In this document: positions 49,982-64,000 of the stretch, one piece after another | How the letters are laid out: each line of letters opens with the position of its first letter | Position numbering within the stretch: position 1 is the stretch's first letter | Source: Escherichia phage iGC_PHA_EC001 | Length of the DNA: 64,000 nt | Sequence record: OR437326.1 | Strand: one strand, 5' to 3' | The notes under the pieces: generated by a model | Database searches by the model: none | Told to the model about the DNA's origin: nothing | What the model saw: the letters and a program-made list of their open reading frames with translations, nothing else | Program-made: the position numbers and the translations under genes

Positions 49982-50281
49982 ATGAATCTGACCGAACAGT
50001 TACGCCGTATTGCAAAAGAAGCTTCCTTCAACTTCCCTGTTGAAGAAGTGATCGAGACATGCTTTGCTGAAGCACGAGCGGGAAACTCTTCAAGAAATTT
50101 CACGCCATCTGATTTTGGTCTGAATAATTCTCCCACCCACCCAGAGCAGATCTACAATCAGGTGAAGTGGATGGATGAAGCAGTAGCAATTCTTCGTGAG
50201 CGTGGGCTTATTGTTTATAAAGAAATGGATCTGAACGGGGCATACGAGTGGATCACTATTGATTGGTCCGAGGTGAAATGA
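49982..50281 (+). CDS. hypothetical protein (99 aa)
   Basis: ORF-track ORF. Confidence 0.5.
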   Translation: MNLTEQLRRIAKEASFNFPVEEVIETCFAEARAGNSSRNFTPSDFGLNNSPTHPEQIYNQVKWMDEAVAILRERGLIVYKEMDLNGAYEWITIDWSEVK

Positions 50282-50514
50282 TGAAAGGTAACAAGATGAA
50301 AGTTAATCAAGTGCCTAGCGCATACACTTTGTGGCTTGCGCGAGCGTTACACCAGACGATCAAAGACCCTAAGAAGCCAATGAAGAGTGGGAAGAAGTTT
50401 ATGTCTAAGGGCAAAACAACTTTTGGCTTCACTCGTATGTCTGTTAAGATGAAAAGGTTGGGGTACAAGCCAAACTACGCTCGTTACCCTTCCGAATACA
50501 ACTGGTTTGACTAA
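50278..50514 (+). CDS. hypothetical basic protein (78 aa)
   Basis: ATGA-coupled start; K-rich. Confidence 0.45.
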   Translation: MMKGNKMKVNQVPSAYTLWLARALHQTIKDPKKPMKSGKKFMSKGKTTFGFTRMSVKMKRLGYKPNYARYPSEYNWFD

Positions 50515-50527
50515 AAGGAGAAAGACT

Positions 50528-50704
50528 ATGGCTACTTTTCAACAACTGAAAGATGTTTCACGTTTAGTAAGAAAAATCCGAGAAGCAGACGCTGCTGTGC
50601 GGAATGCATTAACGCCAGCAGAGCGTGAAGATCTTGAAGAGGAGGTGAAAACAGCCGAGAATGCTTTTGCTGTGTATCTTTCAACACTGTATACAGGAGG
50701 TTAA
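50528..50704 (+). CDS. hypothetical protein (58 aa)
   Basis: Trimmed to MATFQQLKD with RBS aaaggagaaag. Confidence 0.45.
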   Translation: MATFQQLKDVSRLVRKIREADAAVRNALTPAEREDLEEEVKTAENAFAVYLSTLYTGG

Positions 50705-51019
50705 ATGTCAGAAGAACTTAAAGAATTTTATCAGGCATATCATAACTGGCTGTTAGCTGGTGCTCCAGATAATAATCCTTTCTGGCATGATAAAGGATTA
50801 TGTAGTTGCCTCTACCTTTGGACTGGAGGTTATGATGATCTAAATTATGAAATGCAAATGCAATTCCGTGAGGCAGGATTGTCTGAAGAATACCCGTTTG
50901 ATGAAGGAGACTGGTTTAAATATGATTTTGCACAAAGAAACGGGCTATTGCATTTGAATGCTGCCCGTATAAAATGGGTAAAAGACCATGCTACACAGGA
51001 GGATGTGCAATGCCAATAG
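50705..51019 (+). CDS. paralog family A member 3
   Basis: EFYQAYHNWLLAGAPDNNPF..KGLCSCL..YPFDEG..LHLNAARIKWVKDH. Confidence 0.6.
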   Translation: MSEELKEFYQAYHNWLLAGAPDNNPFWHDKGLCSCLYLWTGGYDDLNYEMQMQFREAGLSEEYPFDEGDWFKYDFAQRNGLLHLNAARIKWVKDHATQEDVQCQ

Positions 51020-51210
51020 TGTTTAGTTTCTTAGTAATTGTTATGATTGTTCTTTTCGCGGCATGGCTTTGGGATTTTGACCCAGGAGCAGCGCAGCAAA
51101 GAGCTACAGACTGGAAAGAACAATGTATTGTGCTCAAACATGAACGAAATGCGGAGAAATTTCTTGACCTAGAGTGTGATCGCCTTGTAAGATACAAGCA
51201 AGATAAATAA
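51010..51210 (+). CDS. small membrane protein (66 aa)
   Basis: Trimmed to MPIVFSFLVIVMIVLFAAWLW (TM helix), RBS aggagg. Confidence 0.45.
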   Translation: MPIVFSFLVIVMIVLFAAWLWDFDPGAAQQRATDWKEQCIVLKHERNAEKFLDLECDRLVRYKQDK

Positions 51211-51212
51211 CC

Positions 51213-51413
51213 TTGAGGTGCAAAATGGTAATTGAGATTAAACTTGAATATGCTGGGGCTGTTGCCCTGATCGCACAAATGTTGGGAGCAAAGATTGAAG
51301 AAGTGTGTATCAATGCCTGGAGTGTAGAGATTAATGTTCCTATGGATAACATTGCTAATCGCTTGCTGGTAGCAGAGTGTGAACGCACCAACATAATCTA
51401 CAAAGGAGCATAA
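51213..51413 (+). CDS. hypothetical protein (66 aa)
   Basis: ORF-track ORF. Confidence 0.45.
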   Translation: MRCKMVIEIKLEYAGAVALIAQMLGAKIEEVCINAWSVEINVPMDNIANRLLVAECERTNIIYKGA

Positions 51414-51414
51414 T

Positions 51415-51636
51415 ATGAAAATTAGAGTTTGTGATGTATTGGGTTATGTTGGTTTTGAGAATGTTCAGATTCCTTTTGTTGTTGAAGCACATCTTGTTAG
51501 CGATGACATGACAACATTCTTTGTTACGATAGAAGAAATGTCCAAAGTTGAGGGATGGGAGTGGTTTGAAGAAGATGTTTGGGAAGGTTGTGATTACGTA
51601 TTTTTCTCTGATGAAGTGAATGTTCTTTCGGAGTAG
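51415..51636 (+). CDS. hypothetical protein, paralog pair B (copy 2)
   Basis: Paralog of 47474..47695. Confidence 0.5.
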   Translation: MKIRVCDVLGYVGFENVQIPFVVEAHLVSDDMTTFFVTIEEMSKVEGWEWFEEDVWEGCDYVFFSDEVNVLSE

Positions 51637-51638
51637 GT

Positions 51639-51845
51639 ATGTCTCGTTTTACAAAAGCAGTGTCCATATGTAAGAAACAGTATGAAAGTGATTACGGAAT
51701 ATTTAATATTCCAGTGGATCATACGAAGTATTGTTCATGTGGTGGCAGAATGAAGAAAACAGTGATTTATGCGGATAGTGGAGACGAACTTGTTCCGGTT
51801 ATGGTTTGCAAAGCTTGTCATTCTGTTAAAACATTAAAAGCGTAA
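51639..51845 (+). CDS. hypothetical Cys-rich protein (68 aa)
   Basis: C..C....CSCGG..and CKACH pairs suggest zinc ribbon. Confidence 0.45.
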   Translation: MSRFTKAVSICKKQYESDYGIFNIPVDHTKYCSCGGRMKKTVIYADSGDELVPVMVCKACHSVKTLKA

Positions 51846-51849
51846 GGAG

Positions 51850-51915
51850 TCGGGACACCCGACGATTGGAGCTAAAAATTTTGCGTACAACCCTTTCCGC
51901 CCAACAGGGGCGCGT
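51850..51915 (+). other. structured GC-rich leader/terminator region
   Basis: gtcgggacacccgac hairpin and cgcccaacaggggcg hairpin between genes. Confidence 0.3.
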
Positions 51916-51940
51916 CGGGTAAATAAAGAGGAGAGTTTAT

Positions 51941-52339
51941 ATGAAAAAGATCATCGTAGGTTTCTTGTTACTCATTGCATCACTTGGAACAGCAAATGCG
52001 TCTCAAGTTTATGAGTGTGTGTCAGATGTGGTTGTTAAAAATCTGAAAGGTGAAGTGATTTCTGGTCCTAAGAAAATGGCTTCTGTTGTCATTAATAAAG
52101 ATAACTCCTTTATCCTTAAAAATTCAGGTGGTGCTTTGATGAGTGGCATTCTGCAATACACAGGAGAAAAAAGTAAAGATGGTAGTGCTATGTATGGTTC
52201 ACAACAATTTATTGGCACTACTGAAGTTGTGATGATGCGCACAGAGTATCGAGACACTTTGGCTTGGTTTGCATTTCTAAAAAATGATAAAACAATAACG
52301 AATGTTCTTACTCTAGAAGCTGATTGTACGCAACGATAA
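51941..52339 (+). CDS. secreted protein with signal peptide (132 aa)
   Basis: MKKIIVGFLLLIASLGTANA leader. Confidence 0.55.
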   Translation: MKKIIVGFLLLIASLGTANASQVYECVSDVVVKNLKGEVISGPKKMASVVINKDNSFILKNSGGALMSGILQYTGEKSKDGSAMYGSQQFIGTTEVVMMRTEYRDTLAWFAFLKNDKTITNVLTLEADCTQR

Positions 52340-52348
52340 GGGGGATTT

Positions 52349-52804
52349 ATGACTAAAATGAGACATTACGCTGTAAACTGCAACGATGCTTGGTGTTTGT
52401 GTCCTGATGATCCGACAGAAGGCACATTTGTAAGATATGAGGATTATAAAGAGTTATCGGATGCTGTGATCGCATTGTTAACTGATATCCGTTCACGTTA
52501 TCCAGGACAAGATTTCACTTGCCCTCACATCAAACTTCTTGCCCTTCTGGTAGAAGGGGAGGAACAAGTGGAAGATGGCTTCAAGCGTGTAGAGTATCAA
52601 GGTGAAACTTTAGAGGTTCCTGAATTTGTTAATTATATTGCAACAGATTCGAATGGCGAGCGTTATGGTTACAGTCATAAACCGGAGATTCCAGATTTCG
52701 CTTATGCGTGGCGTATTCCTTATCAAGTTTTTAATGCTGCGGATTACTGGTATTTAGGAGAAGGAGATAGCCGTAATTGGCGTGACTCCTTGGCTCAGGT
52801 TTAA
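52349..52804 (+). CDS. hypothetical protein (151 aa)
   Basis: ORF-track ORF. Confidence 0.5.
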   Translation: MTKMRHYAVNCNDAWCLCPDDPTEGTFVRYEDYKELSDAVIALLTDIRSRYPGQDFTCPHIKLLALLVEGEEQVEDGFKRVEYQGETLEVPEFVNYIATDSNGERYGYSHKPEIPDFAYAWRIPYQVFNAADYWYLGEGDSRNWRDSLAQV

Positions 52805-52808
52805 TACT

Positions 52809-53072
52809 ATGAAAGAAACATTACCAGCAGCCTACCGTCTGAATGATGAACGTATTTGGGAGTGGACCGACGTTTCTTGTTTTTACCCTGAAATAGTTCA
52901 ATATTGGCGAGCGAAAGGGTGTGTTGTAGTTATCAACCCTTGTGGACCAGTAGATGAAGATTGCTTGTATCTCGATGGAAAGTGGCACAGTTATTGTCGC
53001 TGGCCTTTTGAGTGGATGTGTAAAGAAGATCTACCAGAGAGTTGGGAGTATCCAAAAGCAAATAGGAGATAA
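52809..53072 (+). CDS. hypothetical protein (87 aa)
   Basis: Trimmed to MKETLPAAY; start uncertain. Confidence 0.4.
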   Translation: MKETLPAAYRLNDERIWEWTDVSCFYPEIVQYWRAKGCVVVINPCGPVDEDCLYLDGKWHSYCRWPFEWMCKEDLPESWEYPKANRR

Positions 53073-53073
53073 T

Positions 53074-53436
53074 ATGTCTAAAGATTTTGTTGAAGTATTT
53101 GTCAAAGATGAAGAAACTGGTTTAGGCACGGGTTTCATTTGTGAAGAAACTTTTAAGCGTGAACAAGAAAAAGCTATTCTTATGCACCGCTATGATCATG
53201 CACTAGAACAATGGAAAAATGCAGAACAAAAATGCAAAAACCTTTACGCAGAAAATAGAAAACTACAAGATCAAATGGAGTTGTTAGCTATCAGTTTACG
53301 ATCTCTCATTTTGGCTGTAGAAGATGGCTTTAAAAATCCAGATGGTTTTCCTGTGAGCGATATTGAACATGATTTGTATCTTGCTCGTGGTGCTTACTTC
53401 TATGTTAAACAGAAGTGTGTAGAAGGAGAGAAGTGA
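53074..53436 (+). CDS. hypothetical coiled-coil protein (120 aa)
   Basis: Trimmed to MSKDFVEVF with RBS aggagat. Confidence 0.5.
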   Translation: MSKDFVEVFVKDEETGLGTGFICEETFKREQEKAILMHRYDHALEQWKNAEQKCKNLYAENRKLQDQMELLAISLRSLILAVEDGFKNPDGFPVSDIEHDLYLARGAYFYVKQKCVEGEK

Positions 53437-53633
53437 TGGAAGAAAAACTGGAACGTATTATCGAGTTAGCCATGTCTATTGGCTACGACGATTGTTTTCT
53501 CCAAACTATTGGAGAAACACAGAACGATTACGACTCTTGGGTGAAAGAGTTGGAAGAACTCAAAACTTCCTTGATTGCTGACTTTGCTGAAGCAGAGGAT
53601 AAAGCAGATCGTTACAACCATCTGTGTCGATAA
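53436..53633 (+). CDS. hypothetical protein (65 aa)
   Basis: Trimmed to MEEKLERIIEL, RBS gaaggagag. Confidence 0.45.
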   Translation: MEEKLERIIELAMSIGYDDCFLQTIGETQNDYDSWVKELEELKTSLIADFAEAEDKADRYNHLCR

Positions 53634-53636
53634 GCC

Positions 53637-53666
53637 TTGACATTTATTTTATGTATGGTGTACATT
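53637..53666 (+). promoter_or_regulatory. sigma70-like promoter
   Basis: ttgaca-N18-tacatt upstream of gene 53692. Confidence 0.4.
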
Positions 53667-53691
53667 ATCAACGTGAGCAAGGTGGTGTAAT

Positions 53692-53964
53692 ATGAATAAA
53701 GATCGGTTTCTTTCTTTAGTCGCGGAAGCGCCTTTTGATGTTCTTGGGGTGAGATTATGGAAAGACAGAAACTATGGGTTAGATGTTCAAACATACTCTC
53801 TTTGGTTGGTTGGGGAGCACAGCTTAGATGAAAGCTTGTGCATGGGTAGGGATTCTCGTTCCCTCTGTTTAAAGTTCAGAAGCTTAGAACGCGCAAACAA
53901 AGAGCAAGAAAAACTAACGAGGTGGCTAAATGAAAACAAGCGCAAGGTTGATGGAGTTTTATAA
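53692..53964 (+). CDS. hypothetical protein (90 aa)
   Basis: ORF-track ORF. Confidence 0.5.
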   Translation: MNKDRFLSLVAEAPFDVLGVRLWKDRNYGLDVQTYSLWLVGEHSLDESLCMGRDSRSLCLKFRSLERANKEQEKLTRWLNENKRKVDGVL

Positions 53965-54256
53965 AATTTATCTAGCATGGATTGATGTTGGTGCTCCTGA
54001 TGGTAAACCTTTTCGGCGGGATTGCGGTTTGTGTGCCAACTTATTCGACTATGTGCACGCGGATGGCTACAATCCCCTTATAACAACCTTGTCAGATGAA
54101 ATGCACGCACAGTTTTACCACAAAGGGTTGAGTCAAGAATTACCCTTCAATGAGAACTACGATGCATATGTCTTAGAATCAGATGCAGAGGTATGTCACC
54201 TGAATGTGGACAGGATTAATTGGGTAAGAGATTGTATTGCAGAGGAGGATGAATAA
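53930..54256 (+). CDS. paralog family A member 4
   Basis: EFYKIYLAWIDVGAPDGKPF..CGLCANL..LPFNEN..CHLNVDRINWVRD. Confidence 0.6.
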   Translation: MKTSARLMEFYKIYLAWIDVGAPDGKPFRRDCGLCANLFDYVHADGYNPLITTLSDEMHAQFYHKGLSQELPFNENYDAYVLESDAEVCHLNVDRINWVRDCIAEEDE

Positions 54257-54426
54257 TGTCGGATTATAACTGGTATGAACTTGAGGCTGTTTGTCAGTTT
54301 TATGACTCAATAGTTCTGCGTGATCCAATCTGTCAAGAATTGAGTCGCCGTGCAAGTGCATTGGCAATCCGTGTTAAAATAAACGGTTGGAACGCAGATT
54401 TGGAAAAGAGTTGGAATTTCTCTTAG
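54256..54426 (+). CDS. hypothetical small protein (56 aa)
   Basis: Own translation MSDYNWYELEAVCQFYDSIVLRDPICQELSRR..; TAATG coupling. Confidence 0.4.
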   Translation: MSDYNWYELEAVCQFYDSIVLRDPICQELSRRASALAIRVKINGWNADLEKSWNFS

Positions 54427-54478
54427 AAAACACGCGGGTCTTCCGCAAAGTGTTCCCTGAATGGTTTGAGATGGAAGA

Positions 54479-54697
54479 ATGATCATGTGGATTGTGCGTC
54501 TTAAGTATGATGGCAAGTTTCCGTGGGAGAAAGATGTTTGTGCTTGTGATTCGGCAGCACATGCCAAAGCAGCGGGTCAGGCAGTAGTTGACATGTATAA
54601 CAACACTTCCGTTGATCCAGAAATGGCAGGTGTTACAATGAGCATGTTCACTTACTATTCTTTTGAGGTTTACTATCATGAAGGAGAGTGGAAATGA
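54479..54697 (+). CDS. hypothetical protein (72 aa)
   Basis: ORF-track ORF. Confidence 0.45.
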   Translation: MIMWIVRLKYDGKFPWEKDVCACDSAAHAKAAGQAVVDMYNNTSVDPEMAGVTMSMFTYYSFEVYYHEGEWK

Positions 54698-55014
54698 GCG
54701 AAGAACTATTAACATTTTACCGCACGTATTTGGCATGGTTGGAAGCTGGTGCTCCTGAAGGCGAACCGTTCACCCGTTGCACAGGTTTGTGCTCGAACCT
54801 CTATGATTTTTACGATATGGGTGAAAGCGAACGATACGAACCCGTACTGGATGAAATGCATGAACAGTTCTACCACAAAGATTTGGTTATGGTGTTGCCT
54901 TTCAACAGTAATTTTGGAAAGTACACCTTAGAAGCGGAAAAAAGCCGTTGTCATTTGAATGTGGATCGTGTGAACTGGGTAAAAGAACGTGTAGCAGAAG
55001 AAATAAATAGTTGA
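54694..55014 (+). CDS. paralog family A member 5
   Basis: Trimmed to MSEELLTFYRTYLAWLEAGAPEGEPF..TGLCSNL..LPFNSN..CHLNVDRVNWVKE. Confidence 0.6.
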   Translation: MSEELLTFYRTYLAWLEAGAPEGEPFTRCTGLCSNLYDFYDMGESERYEPVLDEMHEQFYHKDLVMVLPFNSNFGKYTLEAEKSRCHLNVDRVNWVKERVAEEINS

Positions 55015-55039
55015 CAGAAGGATCTGTCTTTGTCATAAT
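55011..55039 (+). promoter_or_regulatory. sigma70-like promoter with palindrome over -35
   Basis: ttGACAGAaggaTCTGTCtttgt cataat. Confidence 0.45.
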
Positions 55040-55068
55040 CATCTCATCGAAACAAAGAGGAGAAAATC

Positions 55069-55482
55069 ATGAAAAAGTTTATTTGCACCCGTTCCACTAA
55101 CAGTGATATCCTTGTAGGTAAGGTTATCAAAGGAGAACTCTTCCATGCAAACGGTAAGAAATATATTCTGCTGAAAGATTCTTTCAACGGGGAATATCCG
55201 CGCTGCACTTTCTTCAATTACAACACTCCATTTGCTTTAGAAGGAGATGCTTGGGACTGGGCTGAACTCAATCCTTGTTGTGAAGAAGAAGAATCTATGT
55301 TCTCAGGTTTAAACGTTTACCGTGTAGATTACACCATGTGCGGAGCGGAACATTCTGTTCGCGTAGAAGCCGAATCCAAGCTACAAGCACCTTTCAAGGC
55401 GGGATTGACTTTGGGTCATTGTTTGGCAAACATTGAAGATGTTGTGATCCAAAGAGTTGTTTTAGAGAAAGAGGCTATTTGA
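55069..55482 (+). CDS. hypothetical protein (137 aa)
   Basis: ORF-track ORF, RBS aagaggag. Confidence 0.55.
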   Translation: MKKFICTRSTNSDILVGKVIKGELFHANGKKYILLKDSFNGEYPRCTFFNYNTPFALEGDAWDWAELNPCCEEEESMFSGLNVYRVDYTMCGAEHSVRVEAESKLQAPFKAGLTLGHCLANIEDVVIQRVVLEKEAI

Positions 55483-55507
55483 CAGAAAACGGTGCAATAT
55501 TTAAAAT
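55479..55507 (+). promoter_or_regulatory. sigma70-like promoter
   Basis: ttgaca-N17-taaaat. Confidence 0.45.
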
Positions 55508-55535
55508 ATAAAGATTAACCACAAAAGGAGAGAAA

Positions 55536-55835
55536 ATGCAAGTTGAAGACCTGATCCAGATTCTGAATAAAGCCAAAGAGAAGGGTGCTATCAAAGACTG
55601 GAAACGTGAAACGAGTGAAGACCTATCTCACTGTTGCCGAGAATTTTACATCGAAGGTATTGCTGACGATCATTATATTATCGAATGGTATATCAACTTA
55701 ATGACTCTTAAGCACGGTTCGTTTGAGATTTGGTTTGATGACATTGATGTAAATGGTTTTCATCCTGGCTATAAAATCGCTATGCAGTTGTCTTATCGTA
55801 GAGAAGTTGTAGCACATTTGGGTTTACATAACTAA
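55536..55835 (+). CDS. hypothetical protein (99 aa)
   Basis: ORF-track ORF, RBS aaaggagag. Confidence 0.55.
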   Translation: MQVEDLIQILNKAKEKGAIKDWKRETSEDLSHCCREFYIEGIADDHYIIEWYINLMTLKHGSFEIWFDDIDVNGFHPGYKIAMQLSYRREVVAHLGLHN

Positions 55836-55845
55836 GGAGAAAAGA

Positions 55846-56169
55846 ATGGAAGCAGTTGTTAACGAAGCTATTATGAACTTATCCTTCTTGTTAGCTGGTT
55901 TAGGAGGTGTTCTCATAGGTTTGGCTCTTATCTGGTGTATTCGTCGATTAATCGGGTACCGACAAAAAGGTGTTTCATGTTTTGTATCTTACAATTTTAC
56001 AACTGCTTACAGCAATGAAGTTGGATCTGGTAATGCTCAAGCATTTTTACCAACATATCCTCCTACGGTGGAGGATATTCGAAACTTGGAAGTAGAACTT
56101 ATGGGACTAGGTGATAACTATACATCTCTAGTTATTCAAAATATTTTTCGACTAAAACAGGAGGCGTGA
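55846..56169 (+). CDS. membrane protein (107 aa)
   Basis: TM helix LSFLLAGLGGVLIGLALIWCI. Confidence 0.5.
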   Translation: MEAVVNEAIMNLSFLLAGLGGVLIGLALIWCIRRLIGYRQKGVSCFVSYNFTTAYSNEVGSGNAQAFLPTYPPTVEDIRNLEVELMGLGDNYTSLVIQNIFRLKQEA

Positions 56170-56382
56170 ATGAAGGTACATTACCCTCATCCCTTTGATC
56201 CTAAAAACAAAGCCGTAATTCTTCGTCAGTGGCAACGGATTTGTCGTACTAAATGTCCAATCAATAGCCCACACAATGTAGACAAGGACTATCTTGGGAC
56301 ATTTGTTGAATACACTTACATAGACAAAAACAAGCGTAAACAACATGTCGAGGAATACTGCTTAAGAGTAGAATGGCTGTAA
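56170..56382 (+). CDS. hypothetical protein (70 aa)
   Basis: ORF-track ORF. Confidence 0.45.
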   Translation: MKVHYPHPFDPKNKAVILRQWQRICRTKCPINSPHNVDKDYLGTFVEYTYIDKNKRKQHVEEYCLRVEWL

Positions 56383-56394
56383 ATAATAAATACC

Positions 56395-56423
56395 TTGACA
56401 AGTGTTTATTCGTTTTGTAAAGT
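56395..56423 (+). promoter_or_regulatory. sigma70-like promoter
   Basis: ttgaca-N17-taaagt upstream of recombinase gene. Confidence 0.4.
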
Positions 56424-56452
56424 GAGAATACAGCAATAGTTTAGGAGTGGTT

Positions 56453-57124
56453 ATGAAAAAGTTTGTTGTTTACAGTCGTCTTTCTAAACAGAAAAAAGGT
56501 GAGGCACAATATGGTATGGAGAGCCAAGAGAATGATATCCGTTACTTCTTAGACTCTGTGCCTGATGCGGAAGTTATTGGTCAATTTTCTGAATACTATT
56601 CGGGTAAGGGCGATTGGAAGCAACGTAAGGAACTGGTTAAAGCGGTTGAAATGTGTAAAGCTACCGGAGCAACTTTATTGGTAGCTAAAGTTGACCGCTT
56701 GGGTCGTAACAACGCCTCCGTAGCAACTCTTCTAGAAATGATCGATGTTAAGATAGCCATCATGCCAGACGCAGATAAAATGGTTATACAGCTTCTGTCT
56801 GTTCTGGCTGAACAAGAAGTTAGAGGTATTGCTGATCGTATTAAAAAGGGTCTTGCTGTAGCAAAAAGCAAAGGTGTTTTATTAGGCAGTGCTAATCCTA
56901 AAACTGCCGCTGCACGTAGAAAAGGAAAAATGGAATACAACTCTGTTAAAGCAGACGCTTTTGCAGAGACATTCCGTGAACGCTTGGAGATCCTTAGAGA
57001 TTTAAATACACCTTACAAAACTATTGCTGAAAAATTCAATAGTAAGAAAATAGCAACAGCACGTGGTGGTAAATGGGATGCTAAAACTGTTTCTCGTTTG
57101 TGTGCCAGACTGAACATTAAATAG
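56453..57124 (+). CDS. serine recombinase (resolvase/invertase family)
   Basis: Trimmed to MKKFVVYSRLSKQ; catalytic-domain motifs YSRLS..Q....GMESQ and TLLVAKVDRLGRN; C-terminal HTH-like region. Confidence 0.75.
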   Translation: MKKFVVYSRLSKQKKGEAQYGMESQENDIRYFLDSVPDAEVIGQFSEYYSGKGDWKQRKELVKAVEMCKATGATLLVAKVDRLGRNNASVATLLEMIDVKIAIMPDADKMVIQLLSVLAEQEVRGIADRIKKGLAVAKSKGVLLGSANPKTAAARRKGKMEYNSVKADAFAETFRERLEILRDLNTPYKTIAEKFNSKKIATARGGKWDAKTVSRLCARLNIK

Positions 57125-57132
57125 GAGAGGAT

Positions 57133-57555
57133 ATGAAACAAGAAAATGAATCTGTAGATCACTTAATCATGCTGTCAGCCCTTTTTGCCGGATGGGACGT
57201 ATTTTTTGAAAATTTGTTCAATTCTGCTACAGATGGTTCCGATTTTATGCGCCAGTTTAAACGACGAACTGTTGAGGACTATGCTTTCTATTCAGGTCTG
57301 ATTGAAAAAGGTTACGAAGATACAAATACAACACTCACCATTAAAGTTTTAGATGTGATGTTTAGTGTTATAGATGCTATCGACGAAAGTCTTCCGATCC
57401 TAGACAATTGTAATACGAAAGCCTATGTTTACAAAATAGCTCGTGCTTATGTGTCTGCAAACAGTTGTCTTCTTTCCACCCAGATTGCCGTGAACAATCT
57501 TGCCAACTTGTTCGATGAAGGAGAAACTTTTTATGACAATCGATTTGAAGTGTAA
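57133..57555 (+). CDS. hypothetical protein (140 aa)
   Basis: ORF-track ORF. Confidence 0.5.
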   Translation: MKQENESVDHLIMLSALFAGWDVFFENLFNSATDGSDFMRQFKRRTVEDYAFYSGLIEKGYEDTNTTLTIKVLDVMFSVIDAIDESLPILDNCNTKAYVYKIARAYVSANSCLLSTQIAVNNLANLFDEGETFYDNRFEV

Positions 57556-57898
57556 GAGGATTCTTTTAGATTTCTATAATAATTGGTTAGAACACCTCCG
57601 TCTCTTTCCAAGAGAAAGTGGTTACGCTGATGTTGGCTTATGCCGAGGTCTACGTATGTATATAAGTGATGAATTTCGGGCTGAGCATTCTTTAGCATAT
57701 TCTGTTTATGGTATGCAATTAGCCAGTTTTGAAAACGCTGGCTTAGATACAACTTTCCCATTTAACACAGCAAAATCTTTTGAGCAAGAGTGTAAGGAAA
57801 AACGTTGCATGTTTAATGAAAAACGTGTACAGTGGGTTAAGGATCAAGTTAAACAACTGGAACAAGAGTTGGATTTCTTCTATGATGAGGCAGAATAA
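57533..57898 (+). CDS. paralog family A member 6
   Basis: Trimmed to MTIDLKCKRILLDFYNNWL..VGLCRGL..FPFN..CMFNEKRVQWVKDQ. Confidence 0.55.
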   Translation: MTIDLKCKRILLDFYNNWLEHLRLFPRESGYADVGLCRGLRMYISDEFRAEHSLAYSVYGMQLASFENAGLDTTFPFNTAKSFEQECKEKRCMFNEKRVQWVKDQVKQLEQELDFFYDEAE

Positions 57899-58170
57899 TG
57901 GATAGACAAACCTTAAAAACAATGGCAGATGCCACTAATTCCCCATACTTTGAAAAAGTAAGTAAATTGGTAGCTCAAGCCGCAGAGGAAGGATATTATA
58001 ACATAAACATCCACAACCCAAGTCTTATACTAGAAATGCCAGGTGATAAGAAGATACAAGAGAGTATCTGTGAAGGTATTGTTAGTTACTGGCGCGAGCG
58101 TGGGTGTGGTGCAAACATGGCTTTAGACAGTGCAAACGTTGTAAGATATATAAATATTTCTTGGGGGTGA
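57898..58170 (+). CDS. hypothetical protein (90 aa)
   Basis: ORF-track ORF. Confidence 0.5.
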   Translation: MDRQTLKTMADATNSPYFEKVSKLVAQAAEEGYYNINIHNPSLILEMPGDKKIQESICEGIVSYWRERGCGANMALDSANVVRYINISWG

Positions 58171-58211
58171 TTTTATGATTCAATGCACTCATATCCAAAT
58201 TACTTGGAGAG

Positions 58212-58787
58212 ATGAACTTTACCATTTGGGGGCAATTTACTGTAGGGGAAACATACCCTATCATTAAACATAATCCTAACATCGCAAACTTTGACAGGAT
58301 GGTTCTTGTTGAGGACGATCTGGGTCAAACTTATTCTTTAGATCTAAAATATCCGTTTTCTTACGGCTACGATTGGATCGTTACTTTTGAAGACGTGGAG
58401 GAAAATAAAACAATGAACGAAAAAAATTCTTGGTATTATCGTTGTGAACTGCCGCCAGTAGGTGAAAAGGTTATCTTTGTTCCTGATTTGGAAAGATATT
58501 CTTGGGAAAGTTCTTATTCTGTTCCTAAAGAAGGCACCGAAGTTGAAGTTATTGCACATCGCACAACTTCGCATGGTAACGATGTAGCAGTTGTTTTCTG
58601 GGATGATGAAGGCGCTGCTTGTGCAGGTGGCTTTGTTGCAGGTAATTTTGAACCCCTGCCAGATCCTTTGAAGGAGGCAATTTTAGGCGTAGCTTCTTTT
58701 GGACTCTCTTACACATCTGCACAAGAGATCGTGGAAGGTATTTTAAACGGTACCGTTCCAAACGAAATTTTTAAACAGATTAAATAA
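58212..58787 (+). CDS. hypothetical protein (191 aa); start uncertain
   Basis: ORF-track ORF; well-placed RBS precedes an out-of-frame ATG at about 58175. Confidence 0.5.
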   Translation: MNFTIWGQFTVGETYPIIKHNPNIANFDRMVLVEDDLGQTYSLDLKYPFSYGYDWIVTFEDVEENKTMNEKNSWYYRCELPPVGEKVIFVPDLERYSWESSYSVPKEGTEVEVIAHRTTSHGNDVAVVFWDDEGAACAGGFVAGNFEPLPDPLKEAILGVASFGLSYTSAQEIVEGILNGTVPNEIFKQIK

Positions 58788-58793
58788 TAGTTG

Positions 58794-58815
58794 CACCCCG
58801 TTCTGCGGGGTGTTA
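58794..58815 (+). terminator. terminator hairpin
   Basis: caccccg-ttct-gcggggtg then ttattg. Confidence 0.5.
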
Positions 58816-58838
58816 TTGTATATGTAAAGGAGGCGCTA

Positions 58839-59177
58839 ATGTATTACACTGAAGACTACATACTGTATAACTTTTTTAAAGGTTGGTTGAAATGGGCGGA
58901 ACAAGCTCCTGTCGGAGATTGTGTTTTTCCTTGGGATTCTCGTCAAGGTTTGTGTCGTTGTTTGGAAGATTGGCTTATAACCACAAACTACAATTCAGAA
59001 ACTAAGAAATCTACATCAAACAGATTAAAAATGTTATTTGAAGAAGATGGTTTAGATCCAATTTATCCTTTCGGTGAGGAAAGTTTCCACAATGGTCTTT
59101 TCCTTGGCACTCAACATTATGATAAAGATCGCGTAGATTGGGTAAAAGAAAAGGTAGCACAGTATGAATGGGGTTAA
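58839..59177 (+). CDS. paralog family A member 7
   Basis: Trimmed to MYYTEDYILYNFFKGWLKWAE..QGLCRCL..YPFGEE..DKDRVDWVKE, RBS aaaggagg. Confidence 0.55.
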   Translation: MYYTEDYILYNFFKGWLKWAEQAPVGDCVFPWDSRQGLCRCLEDWLITTNYNSETKKSTSNRLKMLFEEDGLDPIYPFGEESFHNGLFLGTQHYDKDRVDWVKEKVAQYEWG

Positions 59178-59367
59178 GAATTATCACCGCTGGTTAGAAA
59201 GCTATCTTAAGAAATGTGAACTTGGCGTTCCAGGTTATACTTACGACACGGACGAGATCCTTGATGAAATGGAAGTTTGGTTTAAAGAGCCTCGTGAACT
59301 ATTGGAAAACATTCTAATGGCTTGGGATGGTACGGCACAAAGCATTGAAGGAGGTAGAAATGAGTAA
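59164..59367 (+). CDS. hypothetical protein (67 aa)
   Basis: ORF-track ORF. Confidence 0.45.
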   Translation: MNGVKNYHRWLESYLKKCELGVPGYTYDTDEILDEMEVWFKEPRELLENILMAWDGTAQSIEGGRNE

Positions 59368-59494
59368 GAAATTGTTTAATATTCGTGAGAACCGTGATGG
59401 ATCGTTCTCTGTAGTCAATGAGTTTAACGTTTCGGTTGGGACTTTTATTACTAAACGTCAAGCAGAACAAGTAAGAGATACTTTAAACAAGTAA
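59360..59494 (+). CDS. hypothetical small protein (44 aa)
   Basis: Own translation MSKKLFNIRENRDGSFSVVNEFNVSVGTFITKRQAEQVRDTLNK; strong RBS gaaggaggt. Confidence 0.45.
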   Translation: MSKKLFNIRENRDGSFSVVNEFNVSVGTFITKRQAEQVRDTLNK

Positions 59495-59511
59495 ATTTTT
59501 AAGGGGGACTT

Positions 59512-59931
59512 ATGTTAGGTAAGATCAAAGCCTTTTTCAAACGTATCATCGAAGGAAGTCCAACAGAAGGTGCATTAGGAAGATCTCTAACAGGAGAACC
59601 ACTTGCCATAATTTCTATCAGTCGGCATGGGGGGTATTCCATTCGACAAACACCTTTAGGTATAAAAGGTAGTATGCTTTCTTGGACAATATCTCAAGTT
59701 GGTGATAACAGACTTGCAGCTATAGCATTGCTTCGTGGGGAGTATGACTATTGTTTATCAGCATCTTGTAAAAAGCACCTCATAGAGCACATTAAAGACA
59801 GAGTAGAAAGAGAAGGCGGATACTTCTTCGAAACTAAGAGAAACGAACAAGGAACTCTTGACTTCACTAAGGTTTACTGGGACAATCATACTCGTCAAAC
59901 TGTTGAACAACTTCTGGAGGAAAGATGTTAA
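59512..59931 (+). CDS. hypothetical protein (139 aa)
   Basis: ORF-track ORF, RBS aagggggac. Confidence 0.55.
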   Translation: MLGKIKAFFKRIIEGSPTEGALGRSLTGEPLAIISISRHGGYSIRQTPLGIKGSMLSWTISQVGDNRLAAIALLRGEYDYCLSASCKKHLIEHIKDRVEREGGYFFETKRNEQGTLDFTKVYWDNHTRQTVEQLLEERC

Positions 59932-60134
59932 AAGCTTTTGCTATATACTCTACTGTAGGATTCTTTTATTGGATTATAGTTATTGTCGGATGTTGGTTAG
60001 GTTCTTCTGTTGTGATGGGAGAATGGTTAACATACAATGTATTTGAATGGGATGTAGTTTGTAGATCATTACTTGTTATATGGACTGCTATTGTTTGTTG
60101 GATAACTGTTAGTCTAACATTAGATCTATATTGA
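59925..60134 (+). CDS. small membrane protein (69 aa)
   Basis: Two hydrophobic segments. Confidence 0.45.
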   Translation: MLKAFAIYSTVGFFYWIIVIVGCWLGSSVVMGEWLTYNVFEWDVVCRSLLVIWTAIVCWITVSLTLDLY

Positions 60135-60236
60135 TTAATAGATGGTAGATAGATGATCATAGTTTATCTACCTTCACTTACGTTTCATACCTCACTATCG
60201 TGAGTAACATGAAACATTATTATATAGAAATCTACT

Positions 60237-60293
60237 ACTCGCTATCGCTCGTAAACATATGTTTAGGGTACCATATTTTTTTGAAAAAGTCAA
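60237..60293. repeat. about 60-bp repeated intergenic element, copy 2
   Basis: ctactactcgctatcgctcg..tttagggtaccatatttttttgaaaaagtcaa; see copy 1 at 28112..28172. Confidence 0.6.
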
Positions 60294-60303
60294 TGCTGAC
60301 TCA

Positions 60304-60390
60304 CCTATCAATTATCCGTTTAAGATAAGTCTTACCTATCAATCTAACTCTTAACTAGTATTGCACCTATAGTAAGACTATTCCTATAGT
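60304..60390. repeat. short direct repeats (iteron-like) in intergenic region
   Basis: cctatcaat twice and cctatagt twice within about 90 bp. Confidence 0.35.
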
Positions 60391-60427
60391 TATTAACCCT
60401 CTTCTTCTGTAGAATGTAATTAGATCC

Positions 60428-60456
60428 TTGACAAACTCACAAAGCTTGTGTTACAT
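60428..60456 (+). promoter_or_regulatory. sigma70-like promoter
   Basis: ttgaca-N17-ttacat upstream of gene 60495. Confidence 0.45.
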
Positions 60457-60494
60457 TGTGTCTCACAGGTGAATAATACCGAACAGGAGGAAGA

Positions 60495-60710
60495 ATGAGT
60501 TCCAATTTTCTATACAAAGCAAAAGATTCACGAGATGGAGAGAACCATTGGTGGTTGATCACAGCAGATGGTGTTATCATCCTACCGTGGGACGGAGAGA
60601 CGAAAGTTCAAATACTAGAGAAAGTAAAAGGTGTTAGTTTTAATGTTAGTCATGACATAACAACTTTCAAAGCTTTTGCTATGAATCCTAGTCTTGTTGC
60701 TGAATGGTAA
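60495..60710 (+). CDS. hypothetical protein (71 aa)
   Basis: RBS aggagg; C-terminal VAEW shared with next gene. Confidence 0.5.
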   Translation: MSSNFLYKAKDSRDGENHWWLITADGVIILPWDGETKVQILEKVKGVSFNVSHDITTFKAFAMNPSLVAEW

Positions 60711-60723
60711 TCCAGGAGAAAAT

Positions 60724-60942
60724 ATGACTAAAATGTATGCAGCCGTTGATAAGCTGGATGGGTCTGATTCTGTTTTTATTTTGAATAAAATGGGTGTCTT
60801 AGTTTATGCCCGAACTTCTCAAAACATAGAACACCAAGTGGAAGCAGCACAAATTTTAGAGCAAATAACCCCTCCATACCTATACTCAAATGTTGAGCGT
60901 TTTAACGATGCACTTGGTTTGACGTTAATAGCGGAATGGTAA
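60724..60942 (+). CDS. hypothetical protein (72 aa)
   Basis: Trimmed to MTKMYAAV; C-terminal IAEW. Confidence 0.5.
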   Translation: MTKMYAAVDKLDGSDSVFILNKMGVLVYARTSQNIEHQVEAAQILEQITPPYLYSNVERFNDALGLTLIAEW

Positions 60943-60944
60943 TA

Positions 60945-61142
60945 ATGGCGAAAATGTTGGAAATTGATAATGTCGTAACAATCACTACGTCCATGCCTTG
61001 TCCTCCTATGCCTTGTCCCTATTGTGGTGGTGCAGGATATGTTATGGCGGATGTAGGTCAAATTTACGAGTGTAACCCGTGCAAAACCACAGGTTATATC
61101 CAAATAGAATCAGAGGAGAAACACTATGAGCCAAAACGCTAA
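60945..61142 (+). CDS. hypothetical Cys-rich protein (65 aa)
   Basis: CPPMPCPYCGG..CNPCK suggests zinc ribbon. Confidence 0.45.
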   Translation: MAKMLEIDNVVTITTSMPCPPMPCPYCGGAGYVMADVGQIYECNPCKTTGYIQIESEEKHYEPKR

Positions 61143-61575
61143 AGAAAAAGAAGTAATCACGGTAATCCGTCAGATGGAAGGTGCCGAAAACAATGCTTTT
61201 GTTACTAAGATTCTTCTTAATATCTTTGAAGATGTTATTTTAAACAATCCTGGTCATAAAGATTATCAGTATGATGTTATGATGGGTGCTTTGCTTGAAA
61301 TTAACAAAAACACTTTTGCTGAATATGAGCAACACATGCTTTTACCAGAGGAAGATCAGGATTATTTGTTATCTGGTGCTTTAAGTGCACAAGAAAATTT
61401 CTACCACGTTCTTAATATGGCTTATGCAGATGAACTTGCTGTTTCCCTTGAAGAGCGGATTCAAATGGTTCGTGACGTAATGAATGAACAAATCCAAGAA
61501 GTTGAAGATCTGGTAGCAGAGCCTTTAGCAGAAATTCGTGCAGCTATTGAAAAACAAAAAGGAACTCAATCATGA
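61126..61575 (+). CDS. hypothetical protein (149 aa)
   Basis: ORF-track ORF. Confidence 0.5.
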   Translation: MSQNAKEKEVITVIRQMEGAENNAFVTKILLNIFEDVILNNPGHKDYQYDVMMGALLEINKNTFAEYEQHMLLPEEDQDYLLSGALSAQENFYHVLNMAYADELAVSLEERIQMVRDVMNEQIQEVEDLVAEPLAEIRAAIEKQKGTQS

Positions 61576-61739
61576 TGCAAGTAGGTGATGTGGTTTGTCT
61601 TAAAGGTGCAAACAAACAAATGACAGTAATAGAAAGTTATGGTGAATCTTGTAAAGTAACTTGGTTCGATGAAAACGGGGAATTGCAACACGCCATACTC
61701 GATCAAAAAGCTTTGAGGAAGGTTGAAGAAAAAGAATGA
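61572..61739 (+). CDS. small protein (55 aa), YodC/DUF2158-like
   Basis: Own translation MMQVGDVVCLKGANKQMTVIESYGE.. resembles the small GD.V.LKSGGP.MTV family; ATGA coupling both ends. Confidence 0.45.
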   Translation: MMQVGDVVCLKGANKQMTVIESYGESCKVTWFDENGELQHAILDQKALRKVEEKE

Positions 61740-61999
61740 GCCATCCGTCAATATTTTTCTGTTTTGTAGATCTTGAAAACGAGTCTTTAATCGTTGATAG
61801 TGAGGGTTACTTCACTTATTGGGAATCCGAGCACGAAACTATAAGTGTAGTGAAAGAAATTATGCAAACCAATCCAAACCTACCAGCGCATAAGTACGGT
61901 ATTGCAAAAGTGTTTGTTACTAAAACAGAGTACACAAAAGAGCGAAGCACTTTGTACCATAATATTGAAGTGATTCACTATTTCAAAGATGTTATTTAG
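61736..61999 (+). CDS. hypothetical protein (87 aa)
   Basis: ORF-track ORF. Confidence 0.5.
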   Translation: MSHPSIFFCFVDLENESLIVDSEGYFTYWESEHETISVVKEIMQTNPNLPAHKYGIAKVFVTKTEYTKERSTLYHNIEVIHYFKDVI

Positions 62000-62007
62000 G
62001 AGGTTAT

Positions 62008-62616
62008 ATGGAAGAGAAGATTTGGGATGGTAAAGATCCTTTAGAAGTTGGACACGTAGCGCGTGTCAAAAAATCTACTACAGGTCCTGGTTTTTCTGGT
62101 TTGTATCATATACCAGAAGAAGGTCAGCACGTTACAATTTTGGCTCGTGACAAACAAAACGGAGCAACGCCTGTGTGGATTGTTCGTTGGTATGACAAAG
62201 ATCTTAACATTTGCTTGTCACCTATTATGGCTCATTTGCTGGAAGCCCCTTGCTCTGAAGAAGCTCTAATTTTTGTTTCGGCTTTTCAGAAAGCCACAGG
62301 TTTAACATTAGATGCAAAAGATGTGCAAAAAGCATTTGACATTATTCAGGAAGACAACGATACTACATCTAACGACGAACTGGTTGAAGTTACAATCTTA
62401 TCTTCAGCAGATATCCGAGAGATTGATAATTGTGATTTTCCAATCACATTTAAAATGTCGCAGAAAGACATACAGTCATCTGGAAGTTGTTTTGGTATAC
62501 CTCGTTGGTTTTTTGATTCTATCAAAAATTCTACTACAGAGGGATCAGACTATGATCAAGATGACATGCTTTGGTTCTTAAAAAACCGAGAGATTGTTCT
62601 CTCACCACTTAAATAA
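62008..62616 (+). CDS. hypothetical protein (202 aa)
   Basis: RBS ttaggaggtt. Confidence 0.55.
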   Translation: MEEKIWDGKDPLEVGHVARVKKSTTGPGFSGLYHIPEEGQHVTILARDKQNGATPVWIVRWYDKDLNICLSPIMAHLLEAPCSEEALIFVSAFQKATGLTLDAKDVQKAFDIIQEDNDTTSNDELVEVTILSSADIREIDNCDFPITFKMSQKDIQSSGSCFGIPRWFFDSIKNSTTEGSDYDQDDMLWFLKNREIVLSPLK

Positions 62617-62625
62617 GGAGAAATA

Positions 62626-62727
62626 ATGGTTTCATTTATCGTAGGTGTAGTTGTAGGCTATCTTATTAACAAATATCAAGACGTTATCACGGCAAAAGTA
62701 AAAGACATTTTAGACTCATCTAAATAA
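62626..62727 (+). CDS. small membrane peptide (33 aa)
   Basis: Own translation MVSFIVGVVVGYLINKYQDVITAKVKDILDSSK; RBS aaggagaa. Confidence 0.4.
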   Translation: MVSFIVGVVVGYLINKYQDVITAKVKDILDSSK

Positions 62728-62739
62728 TCTATCAAAGCT

Positions 62740-62765
62740 GCATCTTCAATAGGTGCAGCCTTTTA
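62740..62765 (+). terminator. possible terminator hairpin
   Basis: gctgca-tcttcaatagg-tgcagc then ctttt. Confidence 0.35.
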
Positions 62766-62779
62766 AAAGGAGATATGGC

Positions 62780-62953
62780 ATGACTAAACGCACTGATTTT
62801 AAATGTATGCATTGTGGGAAATCTTTTGGGGATCATCAAGCTCGCACATTCAACTGTCCACGTAAAGGTCGCGGAAATTTTAAAGGTTTTAATCCCGCAC
62901 ATGTTTATTCTCCAGATTACGATAAGCCAGAAGAAGAAAAATTTGTTATTTAA
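62780..62953 (+). CDS. small zinc-ribbon-like protein (57 aa)
   Basis: Trimmed to MTKRTDFKCMHCGK..FNCPRKG; RBS aaaggagat. Confidence 0.45.
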   Translation: MTKRTDFKCMHCGKSFGDHQARTFNCPRKGRGNFKGFNPAHVYSPDYDKPEEEKFVI

Positions 62954-62965
62954 TAAGGAGGTCAT

Positions 62966-63247
62966 ATGGAACTCGTTCAAGAATTGTATAATGCTTTAGG
63001 AGCAAAAGGAAAAGATTGGCCCGAACATGCGCTTATTGCTATAAGAGACTCCGATGGTGAGATTAAGTTTTCAAGTGTAAGTAAAGAGCACATCGTAGAA
63101 ACAAAACTGGGTATTTACATGCGTGGAACTTATTGCTTATTCAACACCAGAATGGTAGAAGCTCCTGTTATTGAAGATGGAACAAAAGATTGCCCCACAA
63201 TCGTAACAAAAGCTGAATATGAGAAGTTTTTCTACGCTAAGGCTTGA
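62966..63247 (+). CDS. hypothetical protein (93 aa)
   Basis: RBS ataaggaggt. Confidence 0.55.
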   Translation: MELVQELYNALGAKGKDWPEHALIAIRDSDGEIKFSSVSKEHIVETKLGIYMRGTYCLFNTRMVEAPVIEDGTKDCPTIVTKAEYEKFFYAKA

Positions 63248-63290
63248 CACAGAAACAATACTATAGGATAGTGATCCTATCGTAGCAATA

Positions 63291-63313
63291 GAACCCGCTT
63301 CGGCGGGTTTTTC
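63291..63313 (+). terminator. terminator-like hairpin flanked by direct repeat gtagcaatag
   Basis: aacccgc-ttcg-gcgggtt followed by tttc; preceded by ttgaca and palindrome taggatagtgatccta. Confidence 0.5.
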
Positions 63314-63337
63314 ATATCTGTAGCAATAGGAGGTCGT

Positions 63338-63568
63338 GTGTTAAATAAAATCGAAGAAGGTTGTATGGCATTTTTGGTAGATAACCCGTTTCTCTTTATG
63401 GTTAAGGTCCATGTAGGAGAGTATTTAGGTTATGACGAATGGGATTGTATTATCAATAGTGAAATGCACCACTACCAACCAACAATACTTAAGACGGATC
63501 AAATGGCGCGTATTACAGTAGAGGATGAATTGATCATTGAGTTATACGAGAGAGCACTACACAAGTAA
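63338..63568 (+). CDS. hypothetical protein (76 aa), GTG start
   Basis: RBS aggagg 4 nt upstream of GTG. Confidence 0.45.
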   Translation: MLNKIEEGCMAFLVDNPFLFMVKVHVGEYLGYDEWDCIINSEMHHYQPTILKTDQMARITVEDELIIELYERALHK

Positions 63569-63610
63569 GCTAGAACCCACCTAAATCGAACAGAGACGCT
63601 CTAAAATAGA

Positions 63611-63640
63611 AAAGGCACCCACTTGGGTGCCTTTGTTTTA
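63611..63640. terminator. bidirectional rho-independent terminator between convergent genes
   Basis: aaaa-ggcaccc-actt-gggtgcc-tttgtttta. Confidence 0.7.
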
Positions 63641-63910: not shown

Positions 63911-63928
63911 TTTATTCTCCTAATAAGA

Positions 63929-63946
63929 AAGGGGCCGAAGCCCCTT
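63929..63946 (-). other. hairpin between two leftward genes
   Basis: aaggggc-cgaa-gcccctt; same cgaa-loop hairpin type as at 849-866. Confidence 0.35.
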
Positions 63947-63953
63947 GAGTGGT

Positions 63954-64000
63954 TTATTTGTTTAAGTGGTCTTCGACCATTTTAATAAAACCTTCATTGC
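63954..64000 (-). CDS. C-terminal end of a leftward gene that starts beyond the right window edge
   Basis: In-frame open sequence ending with TAA at 63954-63956 (..AMKVLLKWSKTT). Confidence 0.3.
   Translation of the reverse strand, partial: NEGFIKMVEDHLNK

Follow-up and report, generated by a model that had tools for sequence, protein, structure and literature searches.

A short serine recombinase gene of lytic Phapecoctavirus phages, with a tentatively resolvase-like role

Introduction

Serine recombinases bind short dyad-symmetric sites as dimers, and two bound sites synapse as a tetramer. All four strands are cut by the catalytic serine around a 2-bp centre, leaving covalent 5′-phosphoserine links; half of the tetramer then rotates by 180 degrees and the ends are rejoined. 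The systems with which we compare the present gene are small enzymes (Tn3 and gamma-delta resolvase, Sin, Gin and Hin), large serine recombinases (Bxb1, phiC31, TP901-1 and A118), the Bacteroides invertase Mpi and a group of homologues on small plasmids. The gene is open reading frame (ORF) 56453–57124 of a 64,000-nucleotide stretch of Escherichia phage iGC_PHA_EC001 (OR437326.1), hereafter the window. We find that it is a genuine, intact and conserved small serine recombinase gene. As to its role, we infer with low confidence that it most likely recombines replicating phage DNA in a res/lox-like reaction, using one site in each genome copy.

The gene is already known as an annotation in public records, and it is the function that forms the modest puzzle. 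In phi92 the orthologue, gp053, bears the label 'DNA invertase', and the labels in other records are integrase, resolvase, DNA invertase and hypothetical protein. An identical ORF is called 'methionine ABC transporter ATP-binding protein' in OR352956.1, LR597654.1, NC_052662.1, OR062526.1 and OR352955.1, which looks like a propagated annotation error. Some genome papers in the group state that no recombinase gene is predicted or present (PMC10269720; PMC12474050). Our literature search turned up no experiments with proteins of this family from lytic phages, and the only published comment we found is an untested remark on ORF101 of phage SKA64 (PMC10282059).

Results

The start codon was placed at the ATG at 56453, because the GTG at 56447 falls within the ribosome-binding site and homologues open with MKKFVVY. 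Pfam PF00239 (Resolvase) matches residues 5–142 with 66 bits (cut-off 23.3, E = 5.2e-18) and matched all 50 family members; at E ≤ 1 the Pfam scan of the protein gave this match, a weak match to Recombinase and nothing else. PHROG 125 covers residues 1–222 (E = 2.6e-32), and its name, 'DNA invertase', is an annotation label. Against PDB, the family profile matched Gin (1e-17) and Tn3 resolvase (1e-15), as well as gamma-delta resolvase. The AlphaFold (AF2) model, with a predicted local distance difference test (pLDDT) score of 88.6, shows beta-alpha-beta units and a helix at residues 109–139. Its top Foldseek matches were Sin, gamma-delta, TP901-1 and Bxb1; the model superposes on all four, and its catalytic domain on those of the first three. 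An earlier note on this DNA, made from the letters alone, had called the gene a serine recombinase from the motifs YSRLS, GMESQ and VDRLGRN. All of them are present, as VVYSRLS (Y7, R9, S11), YGMESQ (Q25) and VDRLGRN (D81, R82, R85), and none of the residues Y7, R9, S11, Q25, R58, D81, R82 and R85 varies among 50 aligned homologues of 29–100% identity. The recombinase is predicted to be catalytically competent, with a core like that of the large serine recombinases.

The C-terminal part is of another kind than in the classical small enzymes. The AF2 model places helices at residues 149–156, 162–172, 175–183, 188–197 and 210–219, and PF07508 (Recombinase) matches residues 187–216 weakly, at profile positions 19–48 and with 18.2 bits, under the 21.1-bit cut-off. 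PF07508 was matched by 23 of the 50 family members (best E 5.9e-6) and PF20552, 'Recombinase-like HTH', by two. HTH_7, the Hin-type helix-turn-helix (HTH), gave no match in the Pfam scan at E ≤ 1, nor in any of the 50 family members, and neither that scan nor the AF2 model revealed a zinc-ribbon or coiled-coil domain in the 223-aa protein. None of the NCBIfam equivalogs YneB, XisF, Mpi and CcrB came near its own cut-off: the YneB family resolvase-like protein (NF049883) scored 32.5 bits against 175, and the Mpi family master DNA invertase (NF009949) 22.6 bits against 272. Going by these matches, the C-terminal 78 residues are not an HTH of the Hin or resolvase kind and resemble the first, HTH portion of the 'Recombinase' domain found in large serine recombinases. 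The assignment by profile hidden Markov models that the earlier note had called for thus returned a serine recombinase, with neither the Hin-type HTH_7 nor the full large-serine-recombinase set. We provisionally class the protein as a serine recombinase of short form whose HTH belongs to a truncated Recombinase domain.

Outside phages, its closest homologues are found on 6-kb plasmids and on other mobile elements. Full-length homologues of 220–240 aa with 35–40% identity are carried by plasmids of 5.8–6.4 kb, namely Klebsiella pIIIF7SW-P1_2, Marinovum pMaD11 and Synechococcus pIITB3_2; only the Marinovum plasmid has an annotated RepA and a ParA-like gene, the other two being mostly unannotated. 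A dyad lies at most 70 bp upstream of the gene on the Klebsiella (TATCATTTGTTTGCCG-AA-CGGCAAATTTATGATA) and Synechococcus plasmids, and about 440 bp upstream on the Marinovum plasmid. Further homologues belong to mobile elements with a primase-type gene or a separate integrase. Moreover, five distant viral homologues (L043, L052, L062, L090 and L101) each have one 26-bp palindrome with a TAACGTTCGTTA-like core and a TT centre, 5–33 bp upstream; in the four of these loci that were re-scanned, the core occurs once per locus. These palindromes look like candidate cognate crossover sites. Over 92 homologues, the palindrome score of the upstream 120 bp was somewhat higher than in other windows of the same loci, at a mean percentile of 0.60, a figure confounded by intergenic versus coding sequence and by related loci.

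The window belongs to Phapecoctavirus (subfamily Stephanstirmvirinae), phAPEC8-like lytic myoviruses of E. coli of about 150 kb, and the 4-kb stretch around the gene is 98–99% identical to more than 60 GenBank genomes of this genus. Its first 29.5 kb carry leftward genes for replication and nucleotide metabolism (primase/helicase, NrdD/G, UvrD-type helicase, TerC), followed from about 30 to 64 kb by small rightward genes. A direct terminal repeat of 329 bp has been determined for phage Schickermooser (PMC6563267). This repeat maps to window positions 45853–46181. The window therefore contains the physical genome ends, and the recombinase gene, whose start lies about 10.3 kb rightward of the left one, belongs to the rightward early gene block at that end. 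The Schickermooser repeat aligns with the 343-bp terminal repeat of phi92, both ends being conserved. The earlier note was right to place the gene in the early region of a lytic phage and outside any integrase context. The gene sits downstream of a DUF7202 gene and adjoins variable early accessory genes without known function. There is no conserved partner gene, as the immediate neighbours differ in every lineage examined and none has a known function. On both sides of the recombinase lie PHROG 2510 paralogues of about 110–130 aa (50156–50995, 53930–54256, 54688–55014, 57533–57898 and 58839–59177), which have in common the motif Y..WL..G.P in their N-terminal part and a HLNVDRVNWVKE-like motif in their C-terminal part.

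By tblastn the gene was found in 162 phage records. The band of at least 99% identity holds 62 records, and among the matches listed all are of Phapecoctavirus type and 99.6–100% identical. Identity falls to about 74% in the phiWec181 group, 57% in Justusliebigvirus including phi92 gp053, 55% in Klebsiella phages, 35–39% in Vibrio phages of 128–137 kb and 30% in DRC isolates of ICP1. IMG/VR holds at least 542 relatives, and a protein search gave 93 clusters. The gene is near-universal in Phapecoctavirus, and its conservation extends across Stephanstirmvirinae, though it may be dispensable. In ICP1 2017_DRC_82 the homologue (MW794148.1, 18717–19472; L009, 5001–5756) lies between gp30 and gp41 in a block without reference gp numbers, and among the matches listed only DRC isolates have it. 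The ICP1 copy is thus an accessory gene present in some isolates.

We compared the two domains between the window and phiWec181, using non-synonymous (dN) and synonymous (dS) divergence. The first 145 residues are 95% identical (dN 0.039, dS 1.46, omega about 0.03), whereas the C-terminal domain is 37% identical (dN 0.70, dS 0.90). C-terminal dN is 3–5 times catalytic dN in most other pairs that have an estimate, and just 1.2 times in the most divergent pair, phi92 and L007. Between the window and phi92 the DNA-binding domains share 41% identity. These comparisons point to catalytic machinery that is strongly constrained and to DNA recognition that is diverging quickly or has been swapped.

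The locus also differs between genera. In phi92 the gene and its own promoter-like site stand between gp054 and gp052, in a leftward block of PhoH, lysozyme and HslV-like protease genes. The Vibrio homologue lies in a phi92-like PhoH–protease–ligase–rIIA/B block, which L003 and L007 resemble; a pre-early, T5-like location that we had considered for the Vibrio phages was withdrawn. In Phapecoctavirus (WPEC2, ASO2A) the orthologues of gp054 and gp052 are adjacent, with a 45-bp hairpin between them, so that about 730 bp, comprising promoter and ORF, are cleanly present or absent at this point. The differing positions suggest that the gene moved as a cassette. Terminal inverted repeats of such a cassette were sought in eight orthologues, which gave short, non-conserved matches only. 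The earlier idea of a mobile-element remnant does not stand as far as the word remnant goes, the gene being intact and under strong purifying selection; what survives of it is the movement suggested by the differing loci. The Schickermooser copy (NC_048196.1; L014, 11216–11966) carries six small indels (1, 1, 7, 1, 2 and 7 bp; together 19 bp), all of them in its first 300 nt. Elsewhere it is nearly identical, and the annotated part covers the C-terminal 128 aa only. Either this copy is a true pseudogene, or it reflects an error of sequencing or assembly.

The coordinates of the gene and its signals are collected in Table 1. The promoter assumed in the earlier note is there in promoter-like form, inferred from the consensus, and is identical across four Phapecoctavirus genomes; judged by this match, the recombinase gene appears to be transcribed from its own host-type promoter. 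The orthologues of phi92, L007 and ICP1 likewise have a TTGACA- or TTGACT-type site directly upstream, and the close relatives L011, L021, L022 and L023, with upstream gaps of 10–44 bp, have no site of this type there. The 70-bp upstream region holds one weak 26-bp dyad; no transposase was seen nearby, and the context is that of a phage genome. The placement of this dyad recalls those 5–67 bp upstream of the plasmid and viral homologues. It occurs once in a 148.9-kb composite genome that we assembled for self-comparison from the window and the rest of ASO2A. As a res site it is statistically weak, unique in the genome and not kept in close relatives, and we retain it only as a weak candidate.

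Table 1. Positions in the window of the recombinase gene, its domains and its upstream signals
Feature	Position	Strand	Basis or remark
Serine recombinase coding sequence	56453..57124	+	223 aa and stop codon; ORF list, sequence, Pfam, PHROG
Catalytic domain and long alpha-E helix, aa 1–145	56453..56887	+	Pfam span, AF2 model, invariant residues
Codon TCT of the predicted nucleophile Ser11	56483–56485	+	In catalytic domain
C-terminal five-helix DNA-binding domain (predicted), aa 146–223	56888..57121	+	AF2 helices, weak PF07508 match
Shine-Dalgarno sequence AGGAG	56443..56447	+	5 nt ahead of ATG; read from sequence
Sigma-70-like promoter, TTGACA-17 nt-TAAAGT	56395..56423	+	Consensus scan, 10 of 12 positions
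Imperfect 26-bp palindrome, AATAAATACCTT-GA-CAAGTGTTTATT	56385..56410	.	Overlaps −35 hexamer; weak candidate operator or recombinase site

Several other repeats of the window were considered as recombinase sites. A 23-bp near-palindrome, TAAATGATAATCATTCTCATTTA, occurs in four copies (36299–36327, 36357–36385, 45925–45953 and 46104–46132), of which two lie within the terminal repeat and are conserved in that of phi92. On our reading, it agrees with 15 of 16 positions of the E. coli Fur-box consensus GATAATGATAATCATTATC, and the copies may give iron- or Fur-responsive control at the genome ends. They were rejected as recombinase sites on their single-base centre, the 15/16 Fur match and their conservation in the phi92 repeat despite the 41% identity of the DNA-binding domains. 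Within the terminal repeat at 45853–46181, as aligned with that of phi92, no dyad suitable for a Cre/lox-like cyclisation site was seen. A 72-nt AT-rich direct repeat (36050–36121 and 36188–36259, 82% identical) neighbours two of the Fur-box-like copies; it lies in non-coding DNA at about 35.9–36.4 kb, and the region could be origin- or packaging-related.

Between 36975 and 44040 there are at least eight direct copies of a 56–76-nt unit, each preceding a small plus-strand ORF. In each unit a sigma-70-like promoter (TTGACA-N17-TAAGAT or TAAACT) runs directly into a GC-rich stem-loop, for example GGGCGGCAATGGTGCCGC. Differences among the stems are compensatory, and the cassettes resemble T4-type promoter-early-stem-loop cassettes. 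Comparable repeated cassettes of terminator, promoter and ribosome-binding site flank distant recombinase homologues. The stem-loops after the early promoters (36.9–44.1 kb) were likewise dismissed as recombinase sites, since compensatory variation is the behaviour of RNA hairpins. These cassettes account for the significant direct repeats of the 148.9-kb composite, bar one 66-nt pair (28107–28170 and 60229–60293, 82% identical) that has one copy in the leftward and one in the early block.

Discussion

We favour a resolvase-like reading of this enzyme because its homologues lie on 6-kb plasmids, and we hold it tentatively. Resolvase is meant here in the sense of site-specific multimer resolution, not of Holliday-junction resolution. 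Ser11 would be the residue that cuts all four strands, if the chemistry follows that of the family. Directly repeated copies of one site, on multimers or concatemers or between sister genomes, would be recombined to yield unit-length circles, and the homologues on small plasmids presumably do likewise. A resolvase had been among the roles suggested in the earlier note, and to that extent the suggestion remains plausible; no res site was identified. Several observations weigh against such a role. No cognate site for the recombinase was found in this phage, and the sole upstream dyad is statistically weak: 9 of 12 arm positions pair, which puts it at about the 84th–93rd percentile of 120-bp windows (of related loci) and is not significant. 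This dyad is also missing in close relatives with 10–44 bp between the recombinase and the preceding gene. The shift of locus between genera carried at most about 60 bp of upstream DNA, unlike classical res–resolvase pairs. The C-terminal domain has evolved 3–18 times faster than the catalytic domain (rough rates, because dS is saturated), and a fast DNA-binding domain would be easier to reconcile with a shifting target outside the phage than with one fixed site on its genome. Moreover, packaging from concatemers gives the phage no obvious need for multimer resolution, and the gene may be dispensable for plaque formation, because the Schickermooser copy carries six indels, if these are real.

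Two of the alternatives fare poorly. A DNA invertase that switches a phage segment such as the tail-fibre genes, in the manner of Gin of Mu and Cin of P1, would agree with the names given by PHROG 125 and several GenBank records and with Gin being the best PDB profile match. However, the genome-wide search for inverted repeats proposed in the earlier note yielded none above chance in the 148.9-kb composite, where the longest was a 21-nt terminator-like hairpin accompanied by chance 18-mers; within 6 kb of the gene there was none above chance either, and the window-wide search gave likewise only hairpins and chance 18-mers. By megablast, with the window compared in three parts, the best-matching relatives align colinearly over the tail-fibre, early and metabolic regions; the output omits the strand of any additional place in records further off. 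All listed Phapecoctavirus records have the tail-fibre region at one colinear place, where it varies by module replacement. Inverted repeats are rare near homologues, a weak one lying nearby in only 11 of 80 homologous loci, and HTH_7 is missing. Therefore, inversion of a phage genome segment by the recombinase, which the earlier note had offered as one role, is not supported; with no inverted repeat beyond chance and with colinear relatives, this alternative is already largely refuted and we give it next to no weight. A cryptic integrase, serving occasional integration or pseudolysogeny, is scarcely more credible. Its N-terminal motif spacing and partial Recombinase domain do resemble those of phage serine integrases, one relative is labelled 'integrase', and many distant homologues lie near the ends of viral contigs of 30–50 kb. 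Against this, the 14 kb at window positions 50000–64000 found no match in 5,426 complete E. coli genomes, the protein of 223 aa is without the zinc-ribbon and coiled-coil domains that define large serine integrases, and no repressor or lysogeny module is present. SKA64, too, is reported to match no prophages (PMC10282059). Because no complete E. coli genome carries the region, integration into E. coli is not supported, and there is no sign of lysogeny.

Two further explanations are unlikely but deserve more weight. One is an enzyme of conflict that acts early and in trans, to rearrange, excise or break DNA of the host chromosome, a prophage, a satellite or a co-infecting phage. The contrast between domains in the phiWec181 comparison (95% versus 37% identity; dN 0.04 versus 0.70) speaks for it, as do the failure to find a partner site in the 148.9-kb phage genome, the company of variable early accessory genes, the possible dispensability indicated by the Schickermooser indels and the accessory standing of the gene in ICP1 (DRC isolates among the matches listed; block without reference gp numbers). 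ICP1 moreover exploits the serine recombinase of its satellite in conflict with that satellite (PMC9638900). Its weaknesses are that no target has been identified, that the rate ratios are rough with dS saturated, and that the DNA-binding domains of serine recombinases usually diverge faster than their catalytic domains in any case; we also know of no lytic-phage serine recombinase with a conflict role. The other, to which we give slightly less credence, is a selfish or neutral free-standing cassette, comparable to a homing endonuclease gene or a moron, which moves by its own activity or by illegitimate recombination. The clean presence or absence of about 730 bp between the phi92 gp054 and gp052 orthologues, a locus that differs between genera, neighbours that differ in each lineage examined and the disrupted Schickermooser copy would all be expected of it. 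Yet the gene is near-universal, with 99.6–100% protein identity among the Phapecoctavirus isolates listed, and it has been under very strong purifying selection over a divergence of dS above 1, which is unusual for a gene useless to its carrier; neither recognisable terminal repeats or element ends nor a second genome copy were seen. More speculative still, and improbable in our estimation, is the generalisation that large lytic phages possess a class of short large-serine-recombinase derivatives, used early against foreign DNA with a diversifying domain, or existing as a self-mobilising cassette of about 0.7 kb.

What is newly described here, beyond the annotation, is the truncated Recombinase-type HTH, the fast-evolving C-terminal domain, the genus-dependent locus occupied by gene and promoter as a cassette, and one disrupted copy. 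A strictly lytic lineage has apparently long kept a predicted active site-specific recombinase, with a near-frozen catalytic domain and a fast-changing DNA-binding domain. Finding its target would show whether lytic phages employ conservative site-specific recombination for replicating their genomes or for conflict between genomes. Moreover, Phapecoctavirus and Justusliebigvirus phages have repeatedly been proposed for phage therapy. A clear statement that the subfamily carries a small serine recombinase that is predicted to be non-integrative, with no sign of lysogeny, helps safety screening.

Compared with Tn3 and gamma-delta resolvase, Sin, Gin and Hin, the window protein has a similar size and shares the catalytic fold, the alpha-E helix and the catalytic residues. 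It differs in its C-terminal domain, which spans about 80 aa and five helices and is Recombinase-related, where theirs is an HTH_7 of about 45 aa. Six extra residues separate the serine nucleophile from the S-x-x-x-Q motif relative to the small enzymes, a spacing typical of large serine recombinases. A further difference is that neither a res or hix site nor a transposase or an invertible segment was found beside the window gene. The window protein resembles Bxb1, phiC31, TP901-1 and A118 in how its N-terminal motifs are spaced and in the initial helical portion of the Recombinase domain, and its Foldseek alignments with Bxb1 and with an attL-bound serine integrase span about 250 columns. Those proteins exceed 400 aa, however, and the window protein is less than half as long and lacks the zinc-ribbon and coiled-coil domains, the attP/attB context and lysogeny.

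Bacteroides Mpi, which acts in trans on distant sites, is alike in its small size and aligns over the full length of its model (NF009949), but 22.6 bits against 272 do not make the window protein a member. Some distant family members have upstream palindromes with a ACGTTCGT core, a motif that does not occur near the window gene; the ACGTTCGT core resembles the Mpi site, and the palindromes with TAACGTTCGTTA-like cores resemble the ARACGTWCGT repeats of Mpi. Among phages, phi92 gp053, phAPEC8_0049, the ESCO13 'resolvase', the UP17 'serine recombinase' and SKA64 ORF101 are orthologues of the same architecture. The phi92 protein is 57% identical over its full length and is encoded in the leftward PhoH block, whereas the Phapecoctavirus copy is in the early block. 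The homologues on plasmids of 5.8–6.4 kb have the same architecture of 220–240 aa. Unlike the window gene, those of the Klebsiella and Marinovum plasmids have about 650–680 bp of non-coding DNA upstream, and all of them lie on circular replicons, where multimer resolution makes sense.

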